This document shows, piece after piece, positions 287 to 61,232 of a stretch of DNA of 64,000 nt; within the stretch, counting starts at the first letter, position 1, and every line of letters begins with the position of its first letter. A program made the position numbers and the translations under genes. This stretch comes from Eledone cirrhosa (taxonomy: Eukaryota). Where the stretch lies: the NCBI GenBank assembly GCA_964016885.1, contig OZ024742.1, positions 76,198,001-76,262,000 of the forward strand, in the 5' to 3' direction. The notes under the pieces are model-generated. The model was given only the letters and a program-made list of their open reading frames with translations. It was not told where the DNA came from and made no database searches.

Positions 287-352
287 TATTTTGTCTGATG
301 AAGGCATACCATATTTTTAATATGATAACCCTGAAATATATATAATGAAATA
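287..352 (+). ncRNA. Type I hammerhead ribozyme motif (family A; also at 25137-25203 and 44303-44367)
   Basis: TATTTTGT-CTGATGA-AGG...CCCT-GAAA-TATATATA-ATGAAATA: core boxes, stem I (tattttgt/atgaaata), palindromic stem III, AUA cleavage triplet; next to a (TA)n tract. Confidence 0.7.
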
Positions 353-424
353 AATATGGTTTTATAAATATAGTTTCCATTTATTTAATATCGTTTATAT
401 ATATATATATATATATATATATAT

Positions 425-790
425 AGTAATAATAATAAAATTGAAGACTAAAATCCAAAGAGGGCTCGATAAGGAAAATATATATCAAATATATAAGAAC
501 CGTAGAGCAAATATTTATTAAAATAACAGATTAAAGTTTAAGCAAAGAATCGCTGCTTTCACCCTTAACGGGATATTCTGAAACTAACAATGTCAATCTG
601 TAAACGCAGAACTGGATATTTCAAAAAACGTTCACGAACCAAAGTATCGTCTTCCTGTCTTCCTCCGGTTGCAACGTTTTTTTGAAATATCCAGTTCTGC
701 GTTTACAGATTGACTTTGTTAGTTTCAGAAGATCCCGTTAAGGGTGAAAGCAGCGGTTCTTTGCTTAAACTTTAATCTGTTATTTTAATA
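425..790. mobile_element. Non-coding inverted-repeat insertion (PLE-tail-like family B) between (TA)n tracts
   Basis: ~520-632 is the reverse complement of ~672-788; same family at 43540-43692 and 50058-50585. Confidence 0.75.
721..771 (+). ncRNA. Hammerhead motif, U4A core variant (family B)
   Basis: AGTTT-CAGAAGA-TCCCGTTAAGGGT-GAAA-GCA...TGCTT-AAACT; all three stems form; similar copy at 50518-50567. Confidence 0.6.
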
Positions 791-1667
791 TATATATATA
801 TATATATATATATATATATATATATATATATATATATATATATATATATATATATATATATATATATATATATAATTATATACAATAAAATATGTCCATA
901 GAATCATTTGATAAAATATATACATTATTTCTTCTCCCAATCAGCATAATCAACCACACAAAAAAACAATTAAACAATTCTATGAGATTAAAAGACACCT
1001 ATGAAGAAATAATAGATAAATAAACGACAGCTATAGAAAATATACCCACCATTTTTAATAGCACGTGGAAATTGATTAAATATATCTCAACCATACACAA
1101 TTAGGTGTAAAATCAAAGTTACAAGAACAAATGTATATAAACATACCAAAATTATTTTTCTACCCCACGGAGTTTCATTCGCTTTTTGGAAATATCCGAT
1201 CAAGGATAAATTAACGAGCTTCGAAATCACGAGGAAACAAACTCACTTGGACGAAGATTTTTCTTAAATGATCCCCGCCAGAAACGAATTCAAAAAAGTC
1301 AGAAAGAATGTGATTGGTGGCTTGCGGCGAGTGGGCTGGTTGCTAGAAAACGCAGCCTAATATTGCCTACATTTCATCTCAACCATATGGGAAATTATCA
1401 AATATATAGATTTACATATACATAAACTAGACAAAGACATATATATATATGTAAATATCTATAAGTCGTTTGGAAGCCTCGACAAACCAAATGGGTAAAT
1501 CTCCGGGTAACAAGGTCCGGTGGTGGAGAGAGAGATGTAAGTGGGTGTACGTTGAGATGCGTGGTGTGTATAATATGTGTGAGATGTGTAGAATGAAGGG
1601 AAGAGTAAAAGGATAAAAATAATAATAACAACACGAGAGAGAGAGTTACCTTGGGAAGGATTTAATT

Positions 1668-1705
1668 GTCCCTATATATTTCGGATTCACATCCATCAAC
1701 TGGGG
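1668..1705 (-). ncRNA. Minimal hammerhead-like motif in PLE tail (non-canonical core CAGUUGA)
   Basis: Minus: CCC-CAGTTGA-T-GGAT-GTGA-ATCC-GAAA-TATATA-GGG; decayed copy in the inverted arm at ~3516-3552. Confidence 0.45.
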
Positions 1706-57299: not shown

Positions 57300-58250
57300 A
57301 TATCAGTCTGTTAAATAAAATAGTTCGTTATTTAAAATATATATTTTTCGTTTTTATCAGCAGAACGTTTGGCAACTGACGCATTACATGTTTGATAAGT
57401 GTTCTTATTTCATGAGTTGTACTTTGATCAAGCCATGCCATGTTGAGATTTTGATTTTTCTCATGCAGTTTTCTGGTATGGGCTTTTACAGTAACTTTCT
57501 CTGTTCTCTGGAAACAGTCTTTGTCCAAATGCTTCGTCTTTTACTGTGATAAAATTGCTTTCAAGGTTTTAGAGGTTATAAACAGCATCCTATAGTATTG
57601 TAATTTTAGGCGTTTGCCGTGTTGGTATTCTTGGTTACCTAGTCGAGAGTCATGTTTAATCTCGCCAGTAATTAGATCATGAGATTTTGCAAAATATTTC
57701 AGTTTGAAGTTTGGGGTTCTTCCATTTGCTTCATTTTCTTCAATGTGTCAGACACGTTATCCACTGTGATGTCTTCCAACATTTTTTTAGCGGCTCGGTT
57801 TCTCGTGCATGGCGATTCCACTGCTTCCAGCAATCTTCCCCAGAACTCGTCTAATATTTTTCTTTCTGGCGCTACATTTATCTCTATTTTGCTTATACTA
57901 AGTTCCTGGTTGAATCGTTTTAGGTTGGAAGGAAATGACCAGTTTGGTTAAATTTTTCATATCTACAGATTCTTGGTGCCTTTGCAAGTATTCTCTGTTT
58001 GAAACATTCTTTAGTTTCAGTGATTTCCATTTCTGTTATGTAATATTTCTTAAATATTTTTATTTTTTACAATTTTCTTCAACGTGTTGCTATCTTTCCT
58101 ATTTCATTTAAGCTTGTGATGTCCTTTCTTTTATTCTCTCTCTTTAATACGTGTTGATTATTTCCTGGTTTCTATAGGTTTTGCTATTATTTTTTAGTAG
58201 TGACTACTGCATGTATTATGTTATTTACACTTGTGTGTTACTAATGGTTC
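57300..58250 (-). pseudogene. Upstream part of an R4/Dong-like LINE ORF (decayed)
   Basis: FWGRLLE and ITVDNVSDTLKKMK pre-RT motifs; LAWLDQS-like peptide. Confidence 0.5.
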
Positions 58251-59149
58251 TGTTGGTGTTAATTAAATCTATCATAGCCAGTTTAGTATTACTTATAATT
58301 GTTGCCTTCTTCTTCTTCTTCTTCTTCTTCTTGTATTATTAAATTTCCTGTGACTGATATTGTATCGACTCTTCGATAAATTTATTTTTGTGTTTAATCC
58401 ATAACTTGAATGATGTTTCTTGAGTATATATTCAAACACATGATGATTCTTGTTATTTGGCGCTTTTGAAACTAAGAAAATTTGTATGTATTATATACCT
58501 AAGCATTTGATAACGAAATTGCTTTCTAAACATTACGGTATTAAAATATCTGAATGTTGAGACGTGTCAAAATATAAATAAAACACATGAAATGAACCAA
58601 TAATTGTGTCTAGATTTACGTTTTCTGGTAATTGGCTCAACTAATCTAGTCCATCACGAATAAGGCTTGTTAAACATATTAGGAATGGTTTTATCAGAAT
58701 TTCCAAGAAATTACTTATTTTATTCTCTTTGCATTGTGGAGCATCGACAAGATGTCTTGCGGTGAAATTAATTCAATGCATTAAGAATTTGAATTTTGTC
58801 ACGCTTCAATTATTAACATATTTCAAGTTCAGTAAGCTGTAAACATTGCAGTTTTATATTTGAATTTTACTATATAATCTACCAATTTTGTTGTCAAATA
58901 TCTTCAATAGAGTTTCAATAATGCAATAAATCTTCCCGTTATTTTGGAATGTATATATTTGTGTGCCCATTCAAAGTTAACATATTGTTCTCGTTTCTTT
59001 TTGACAAGATGTGTATACTAAGAGTTATAGGAGGGGACTGGAATCTCTATAGACCTACTCTTTAAGGAGTGATGTTAGAGTTGTCAAATCTTGCATGCAT
59101 TAAATTCAACTCTTTTTATTAATAACTGCATTATGTATTTTTAGATAAA

Positions 59150-59558
59150 CCTGAACCTGACAGATCAAAGAAAGCTTCAAATGTAACAAGTAGTGATTTC
59201 TTTTGAAAATCGATAACGTTTTGCATCGTGGTATTATGAAGTACCTGCAGAAAAAGGGATTAGACTCTAAGGACATTCAAGCTGACATGGTTGCTACATT
59301 AGAGTATGATGCATAAGTGGGCAGCTGCATTTAGGAGGGGAAGGGAGAGTCCTGTATATGACCCATGTTATGGAATCCTGAAACTGCCATTATCGAATGA
59401 AACATTGATCGTGTTTACCACATCGTGATAAATGACAGTCGATTTACTATCAATCAAATAACCAATGCTATCAGCATATCCTGTGAGAGAGTTGAGAATA
59501 TTTTGCACAATGATCTTGGCATGACGAAGATTCCGGCTCTCTGGCTGTTACGTCTTGT
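59150..59558 (+). mobile_element. Mariner transposase N-terminal relic
   Basis: HRGIMKYLQKKGLDSKDIQADMVATL..WAAAFRRGRES...NDSRFTINQITNAISISCERVENILHNDLGMTKIPALWL (decayed WVPR motif). Confidence 0.82.
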
Positions 59559-61179
59559 AGTATAATGACAACTACGTTTGTTTTGTTGGCTTCGCAATGT
59601 GTCTTGTAGTTATGTGAGGTGAGTCCAATAAAGAGTTAAACAAACTGGTATTATATGTTTATTCTCTAGGATATTGAATTTATCAGGAGATAAGAAATCA
59701 CAAAAGTTATTCAGTGTTTTTCTATTTTCCCTTTGAGAAAAAGTTAGCTTTCCTTTGATAAATGTTATCTATATAAACAAAGTATTCAGACAATCTTAGT
59801 TTTACGGTAAAATGATGTGATATTATTCTTAATTTGTGATGCATTACATTTTTTAGTAGGATAAGTGTAAACTTTAGTCCTTTAAACAAATACAGAATAG
59901 ATTATCATATAATCTTTTCATCGTATAATGCTTTGACGCCCTTTACTTCCGTCTAAAAAACGACTGCTTTCATGCATCTATGTTCGGTCTGGAAGAGTAA
60001 TGTATTAGTATCGTTGGTCTAAAAAATGATCACCACCGGTGTGTGCCCTGTAGGAATTAATACATACAGTATACACAGGGTGTTTATTGAACCTCTCGTT
60101 CGTTTTAATGTACGTGTTTGAATTTGCCTTCTTACATGTTGTGATTTCATATGTTATATATATATATATATAGCAGTTTGCTTGAGGCATTGTTGAATAG
60201 GAAATATAAATTTAAATAATGTTGAAAACAATACAGTGCATTAAAAAATTAATGCTGCCAAGTTAACAATAGAATCTTACCGTAGCACATTTAATAATCC
60301 CAAATGTTTTTTAAAAATTCATTATCGAGTTTCCTCTAAAGGTCTTAAAGGATCGAACCTTTAAGACCTTCACGGGGATACTAATGGTAAGATACTATTT
60401 GTATTGGCACCTTTAATTTTCTAATGCATTGAATTATGTTTCAAAATTATATATATATATATATATGAGAAGAATTGAGTGCTGCGTGGTTGCACATGGG
60501 TTACATATGAAAAGAATAGTCCTTCATCAGTGATTCTCCAACCTTCATTGGTATTTCATCGCTTTAAAAATCATATACCTCCAGTTGGTGCGAGCAATAG
60601 CTAAATAAAGCTATTGGGACAAGTAAAGCGTAAAGCGAGCGAGACAAGTAAACAAACATATAAGGTATAGCAACGGGAAGATAGGAAGAAACAAGCACAT
60701 GATATCCGTTCAGCTTAAGCTGGGAGAATTTCATGGGCGAGAGAGACAACAGACCGCCCGACGTGAGTAAGGTGTGAGCGAGAAAGGACCCCACACAGGC
60801 AAACGGGAGGAAGTGACAAGAGGAGAAGCAGAGAGTGAGTGAGTGGAAGTGCGAGGAAGAGGCCAGTCGAGAGAAAGTGTGACTGACAGAGGGGGCGAAA
60901 GAAGGTGAGAGATACAGAGAGAGGGTGGAAGCAGTAAGAGAGAAACAGAGAAACGCAGCTGGGAAAAATATATATAAAAATATGAGAAAAATTGCGTGCT
61001 GCGTGGTTGCACATGGGTTACATATGAAAAAAATAGTCCATATATGTATATATATATATACACCTCAGTATGCAGATTGGAATACTCGACGAAATATGCA
61101 TGCGGGTTTGATTACTCCGGAGTAATGTAAAATAAGTAAGTCAAACATGTAAAATTTGGCTTCGTTTATTTTAAATTCT

Positions 61180-61232
61180 CTGCTATATATATTTCGGTGA
61201 CAGGTATTATTGGCTGTGACCTCTTCAGGCAG
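61180..61232 (-). ncRNA. Type I hammerhead motif
   Basis: Minus: CTGC-CTGAAGA-GGTCACAG...CTGTCACC-GAAATATATATA-GCAG. Confidence 0.78.

Follow-up and report, generated by a model that had tools for sequence, protein, structure and literature searches.

Hammerhead ribozyme motifs in the Eledone cirrhosa genome and their likely carriers, the ends of Penelope-like elements

Why does a 64-kb stretch of the 2,996-Mb Eledone cirrhosa genome (GCA_964016885.1, contig OZ024742.1, forward-strand positions 76,198,001 to 76,262,000; here called the window) contain so many hammerhead ribozyme (HHR) motifs, and what kind of element carries them? A first-pass annotation had listed 24 such motifs and proposed a ribozyme-based mobilome. 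We found 36 HHR sites in the window, one per 1.8 kb. We consider it very probable that these are type I motifs lying close to where a repeat insertion ends, the majority likely belonging to pseudo-long terminal repeat (pseudo-LTR) ends of many families of Penelope-like elements (PLEs) that are short, 5′-truncated, often inverted, and inserted in (TA)n, accompanied by a few tandem retrozyme-like units that lack an open reading frame (ORF).

Number and density of hammerhead motifs

HHRs were sought in three ways: with a strict type I descriptor, compared with 30 local dinucleotide shuffles of the window; with a purpose-built tolerant scorer, used at a threshold of ≥11 for the window and 10 shuffles and of ≥12 for density counts; and by homology to a library of 197 distinct HHR sequences from other loci, which left out the window's own loci and a satellite, L057. 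The strict descriptor yielded 5 window sites versus 0.0 in shuffles, and the tolerant scorer yielded 13 versus a shuffle mean of 0.4 (maximum, 1). The homology library alone identified 35 sites; 44025, recognized by other alignments and its score, brings the total to 36. Site 43960 is supported by a 74% match and a score of 11.7. All 24 motifs of the first-pass annotation proved to be type I HHRs or decayed copies of HHR families (23 fully by homology, and 4657 in its 3′ half), and 12 further sites lie beyond that list. Its view that more than 10 lineages are involved also holds: the 36 sites fall into ∼24 families, which we grouped from homology alignments. Individual weak sites (12035, 46524, and 56236) could still prove false.

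The type I order of CUGANGA (or its U3-A8 form), GAAA, and NUH is present in families with a consensus core (A, A2, B, C, and D among them), and self-cleavage of window hammerheads at NUH is predicted. The earlier description of stems I to III as pairable was overstated and fails in many copies: about 7 of 36 sites (295, 5833, 25195, 44311, 45171, 45516, and 61228) have a consensus core with GAAA and UH together with a stem I of 4 or more contiguous pairs; about 9 have a variant core or a short or mismatched stem I; and the remainder are damaged. Stem I values for 4745, 12075, and 46640, and H17 of 44025, were left out because their coordinates are rough.

The density seen in the window is not peculiar to it. 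Among 39 arbitrary 10-kb stretches (390 kb) from 24 large contigs, 72 matches scored ≥12, compared to 0 and 1 in two shuffle sets; satellite L057, kept in this count, contributed 1 of the 72. The window has 8 such matches per 64 kb and is average or slightly below for the genome, not a hotspot. Bootstrapping the sample gave a genome estimate of 553,000 motifs (415,000 to 699,000), falling to 507,000 if cores must be exact. Genome-wide, one HHR subclass by itself has 145,583 matches versus 16,376 for a reversed-pattern control; since the sampled stretches contain 25 subclass matches where 19 were expected, the sample estimate may run high, and rescaling brings it to ∼0.4 million. We thus estimate that the genome carries about 0.4 to 0.55 million HHR motifs. 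Published figures include up to 120,000 hammerheads in the axolotl (PMC7229834), whose genome is 28.21 Gb (10.64898/2026.07.22.740005), and 235 Rfam hammerhead matches in the giant squid (PMC6962438); the density found here is ∼30 to 40 times that of the axolotl, an excess that is indicative only because the methods differ.

Could such numbers arise from chance matches in AT-rich DNA? The AT-rich satellite L057 (G000:C7:30000001-30010000) shows how they might: it produces false matches with scores of 9 to 11.5 and mimics U3-A8 hammerheads in descriptor scans, and because the genome-wide U3-A8 pattern also matches a satellite, that count (67,889 versus 21,417) was not used. The 72 matches at ≥12 versus 0 to 1 in shuffles, together with family-level homology and covariation, refute a chance origin for the bulk of the motifs, and we give this explanation almost no credence. 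The excess over shuffled controls expected by the first-pass annotation was present with both window scans and in the 390-kb sample.

Covariation was assessed in 40 family A sequences, a single superfamily, which were gathered by BLAST and not by descriptor. Paired bases occupy 94% of alignment cells, 7 of 9 stem II pairs are altered on both sides, and the covariation value of 0.278 exceeds those of shuffled (0.185; reached in 0 of 500) and slid (≤0.146) alignments. Stem III is palindromic in 46 of the 72 sample matches.

Ends of Penelope-like elements as the probable main carriers

HHR copies share a fixed downstream end and a variable upstream length, and inverted pairs are frequent. The HHR lies tens to a few hundred nucleotides (nt) ahead of the fixed insertion end, which abuts (TA)n: a (TA)4 or longer tract occurs ≤250 nt downstream in 61 of 72 matches, upstream in 34 of 72, and at 31% of random positions. 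A fixed 3′ end, 5′ truncation, an inverted 5′ copy, and an optional tail, as found in PLE ends, are all present. Some family A copies have an optional ∼90-nt extension past their usual end that resembles a PLE tail (L152:900-2600, L144, L156, and L068).

Six families (A, G, H, L, S, and fam3) are tied to PLE coding sequence by several copies or by an enclosed ORF, in loci that mostly span 1.5 kb either side of the HHR, and the window itself contains at least 7 PLE ORF remnants. The coding piece lies upstream of the HHR at a constant 929 to 940 nt in family G (some piece in 9 of 24 copies), at ∼0.7 to 0.8 kb in L (15 of 23), at 383 to 421 nt in S (7 of 15, three of which are the window copy seen via overlapping loci), at 202 to 206 nt in fam3 (4 of 15), and at 231 to 282 nt in H (4 of 7). 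In family A, a 517-amino-acid (aa) ORF between two inverted copies (L029) matches a PLE reverse transcriptase (RT)/GIY-YIG profile at 98.2%. A Pfam search found nothing for this ORF or for the Hydra-type ORF pieces, and of the 133 matches (E ≤ 1) from a cmscan of the window with Rfam release 15, none was to a hammerhead family, all being simple-hairpin microRNA and small nucleolar RNA look-alikes under the gathering score; the elements are indeed missed by protein-centred annotation, as first proposed, and by annotation built on Rfam as well. ORFs of A, G, and L have a CxCX5C linker and (TA)n targets, by which we assign these families to a putative Hydra type, the ORF pieces being without the N-terminal region. 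Families F and J have a Neptune-type linker, each with single (window) copy support. We disregarded PLE links of family R, which arose from a second-round BLAST on noncoding pieces, and single links at odd distances for C, B, P, O, and U8.

Earlier work describes HHRs in PLEs and an RT that initiates internally (PMC4209133 and PMC11167929). The observed density would be accounted for as follows. The PLE endonuclease would nick (TA)n, and reverse transcription would begin just downstream of the HHR, so that even the shortest abortive insertion would carry one HHR and a 5′ inversion two; very high PLE activity would do the rest. Cleavage would take place in transcripts of full-length elements and of tandem units, where two HHRs would dimerize through the palindromic stem III, probably assisted by protein, and from the tandem units it would release circles. 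The majority of single copies scattered through the genome are probably inert.

The alternative closest to the first-pass proposal is an independent ribozyme mobilome, consisting mostly of nonautonomous retrozymes that spread as self-cleaved circular RNAs with PLEs as mere helpers. Units of the right kind exist: besides family C (485 nt), ORF-less tandem units were found in family P (497 nt) and with a U3-A8 core (592 nt), and many families have no ORF link. The family C unit (45171 in the window) has 36% GC and no ORF longer than 83 aa and occurs as monomers and arrays of 2 to 20 units with one type I HHR per unit. Six arrays examined have the same terminal base before (TA)n, and 329 of 347 unit starts directly follow the preceding unit's end, which fits a circular or tandem template; modeled as a circle, the unit has a good fold (z −6.9). 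U3-A8 hammerheads were also noticed in tandem arrays with periods of 316 and 592 nt (G000:C1:6519946-6521556 and L032:636-2274). A direct-repeat search of the window was dominated by microsatellites. In numbers, however, family C is a minority, with 604 HHR copies genome-wide versus ∼25,000 for the PLE-linked family G; the ORF-linked family A group dominates the first 100 matches listed in the subclass count; and single copies are variably 5′-truncated rather than unit-length. Those abundant families that we examined (A, G, H, L, S, and the related fam3) are 3′ ends of protein-coding PLEs, truncated at variable 5′ points, and we think an independent mobilome improbable.

Several observations weigh against PLE ends as the general explanation. 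About 15 of the ∼24 window families have no ORF link within loci mostly reaching 1.5 kb each side, and the family A link consists of the one enclosed ORF (L029) and an inverted ORF piece seen by eye (L158). Target-site duplications would be masked by (TA)n. Recurrent variants inside a 20-unit family C array point to DNA-level duplication besides retrotransposition. As for structure, family A stems I and III are conserved, without two-sided changes; its count of pairs with change reached only 62/500, which is not significant; and relatedness among the sequences inflates the cell counts. Of 10 monomer folds, 7 are no better than shuffles (z above −1.1), as expected if stem III forms in the dimer.

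The window sites and PLE pieces are as follows (coordinates, strand, description, and, where given, mode of detection; "new" marks four of the 12 sites absent from the first-pass list).

283..356, +, HHR family A (putative Hydra-type PLE end), consensus core, 8-bp stem I; descriptor, homology
528..590, −, HHR family G, core damaged, inverted partner of 714-778; homology
714..778, +, HHR family G, fixed U4A core, closed stem III, H17=U; homology, scorer
1151..1245, −, decayed HHR, new; homology
1661..1714, −, HHR-like motif family S, fixed U4A+A6U core, 413 nt behind PLE ORF, new
2113..3432, −, PLE ORF piece, RT and GIY-YIG, 439 aa
3509..3559, +, family S inverted copy, G12 lost
4280..4339, −, HHR family Q, C3 mutated; homology
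4652..4770, −, HHR family N, matching an intact copy in its 3′ half, C3-A8 mismatch in core
5821..5963, +, HHR with U3-A8 core, long stem II, new; scorer, homology
12035..12074, −, partial decayed HHR (fam3); homology
14978..16884, +, broken PLE ORF (RT)
17257..17299, −, HHR family O, U3-A8 core, stem I lost; homology
18532..18618, +, HHR family P (U4A, closed stem III) in 497-nt tandem unit, GAAA damaged
19029..19116, +, family P second unit, damaged; homology
19615..19738, −, HHR family L, fixed U4C core, behind putative Hydra-type GIY-YIG piece
20559..21035, −, GIY-YIG piece with CxCX5C linker (putative Hydra-type PLE)
21898..22021, +, family L inverted partner
22317..22400, +, decayed HHR, new; homology
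24089..24222, −, HHR family M, very long stem II, stem I damaged; homology
25133..25207, −, HHR family A2, consensus core, 8-bp stem I; descriptor, homology
33667..33726, +, HHR family I, U3-A8 core, stem I damaged in window copy; homology
33988..34039, −, minimal HHR family F, 2-bp stem I, 1.7 kb behind Neptune-type GIY-YIG piece
35711..36253, −, GIY-YIG piece with CX4CXXC linker (Neptune-type)
36486..36534, −, HHR family J, ∼0.6 kb behind PLE at 37.2-39.2 kb, stem I damaged
37160..39151, −, broken PLE ORF (RT and GIY-YIG pieces)
39197..39251, −, HHR family K, private U4C change, just ahead of 37.2-39.2 kb PLE ORF; homology
40658..41409, −, PLE C-terminal piece
43549..43607, −, family G, damaged; homology
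43961..44035, −, HHR family E, consensus core, single stem I mismatch; homology, scorer
44299..44371, +, HHR family A, consensus core, 8-bp stem I; descriptor, homology
45089..45180, −, HHR family C, 5′-truncated inverted monomer of ORF-less 485-nt tandem retrozyme-like unit
45435..45527, −, HHR family D, consensus core, GUU site; scorer, homology
45958..46051, +, family D inverted partner, A15.1 mutated; homology
46524..46632, −, 3′ half of HHR from a U4C family; homology
47576..47644, −, HHR family B, G12 mutated; homology
48777..49875, −, putative Hydra-type PLE C-terminal pieces
50160..50224, −, family G; homology
50511..50574, +, family G, stem I damaged; homology
52017..52074, −, HHR family H, 2-bp stem I, PLE link seen in other copies
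52529..52586, +, family H inverted partner
56236..56281, −, copy of family Q, strongly decayed; homology
61180..61240, −, HHR family B, consensus core, 4-bp stem I; descriptor, homology

The PLE ORF at 37.2 to 39.2 kb is flanked by two different HHRs, K ahead and J behind. A near-perfect ∼1-kb palindrome (51805-52798) stems from the 5′-inverted family H insertion and yields the top spurious microRNA matches. Family R (46885, 47416, 50823, and 60530) was not counted as HHR: CUGAUGA is present, with no GAAA partner that has a pairable stem II. It is a ∼530-nt tandem-prone repeat ending in (TA)n (46665-47497, +; 50760-51162, −; and 60448-61039, −), with two subfamilies ∼75% alike in which GAAA is kept upstream of CUGAUGA and stem II is unpaired; it is possibly a degenerate or permuted hammerhead. 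Other repeats in the window are a broken long interspersed nuclear element with endonuclease and an RT piece (61472-63758, +), a second fragment of that element (8444-8748, −), and a dispersed ∼190-nt repeat, resembling a short interspersed nuclear element, without a hammerhead match (7938-8015, 10576-10993, 21648-21832, 32062-32256, and 53012-53204).

Families with fixed core variants

Family G has 25,072 genome matches when position 4 is left free, with U4A in 95 of the first 100 matches listed; of the 5 that look like the consensus, 4 overlap the junction of an inversion. In some family G copies, the 5′ inversion has its breakpoint exactly inside the HHR core, giving a consensus-looking core at the junction (for example, G000:C1:4182311-4182361). 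In family S, 2,371 of 2,459 matches have U4A+A6U and none has the consensus core, while aligned copies are U4C in family L and U4A in family P. Judged by their sequences, G, P, L, and S, which are without the consensus U4 (S also without A6), appear to be HHR-like variants. Every family standard seen retains G12 and G8 (or a U3-A8 swap); G12 and G8 are the catalytic residues (PMC6155905).

The fold may be kept chiefly as a protein-binding or RT-positioning signal, with cleavage dispensable or protein-dependent, an explanation compatible with PLE ends as carriers. Families with fixed U4A (G and P), U4C (L), and U4A+A6U (S) have been amplified to thousands of copies, and a PLE HHR is reported to cleave only with protein, its mutants inserting unimpaired in vitro and RT starting inside the RNA (PMC11167929). 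Retention of G8 (or the swap) and G12 instead fits selection on catalysis, and U4C still supports viroid infectivity (PMC3088659); moreover, wholly lost cores are invisible to us because the tolerant scan favors near-intact ones. We regard a chiefly signaling role as possible but doubtful.

The role of PLE hammerheads has been called unclear (10.1101/2021.04.23.441226), and cleavage is unnecessary for insertion in vitro (PMC11167929). We tentatively suggest that E. cirrhosa may have the densest hammerhead load reported (∼1 per 6 kb, or half a million), in which PLE families thriving with U4A, U4C, and U4A+A6U cores that keep G8 and G12 might be ribozymes that depend on protein and whose uridine turn is remodelled, or else folds acting as a cis signal that positions the Penelope RT. 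If true, either would settle the purpose of the PLE hammerhead, and young, high-copy families with fixed core changes, including S with its nearly open ORF, make that role directly testable.

Comparison with known ribozyme-bearing elements

The locus itself is ordinary for this genome and the kind of element is already known; new here are the unusual scale and the successful families with fixed altered cores. Our literature search found no report of such density, nor of fixed U4A or U4A+A6U PLE cores, among texts that did not extend to the supplements and figures of PMC4209133, PMC3088659, and 10.1101/2021.04.23.441226, which may show such variants. The available text on Octopus vulgaris lists active Penelope families and makes no mention of ribozymes (PMC13282606). 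The hammerhead families of Rfam (release 15) have the same core and three-way junction, but no model matches any window site at the E value used; the HHR motif is a cheap marker for PLE ends missed by Rfam and Pfam.

The closest likeness is to the minimal HHRs of metazoan PLE pseudo-LTRs (PMC4209133). These too have type I topology, a short palindromic stem III, an additional base following A9, and the U3-A8 covariant, and in each genome they fall into numerous divergent families of mostly truncated single copies, with pairs on opposite strands. Unlike those, the E. cirrhosa motifs often have G10.1-C11.1 replaced, have a stem II of up to ∼115 nt, and include position 4 and 6 variants fixed in whole families; ∼9,000 were counted in Xenopus tropicalis and 4,000 in coelacanth, by another descriptor, compared to the ∼0.4 to 0.55 million estimated here. 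Among PLEs with a C-terminal endonuclease (EN+), the Hydra clade (10.1101/2021.04.23.441226) has the CxCX5C linker, C-terminal GIY-YIG, HHR, and (TA)n insertion seen in A, G, and L; that clade was described from few families, whereas copy numbers here run to tens of thousands, and the core is U4A in G and U4C in L. Finally, family C resembles metazoan non-LTR retrozymes (PMC7229834 and 10.64898/2026.07.22.740005) in its low GC, ORF-less unit with one type I HHR, and range from monomers to 20-mers, but differs in its PLE-like fixed end at (TA)n and its 5′ truncation or inversion; it makes up a small share of the landscape.

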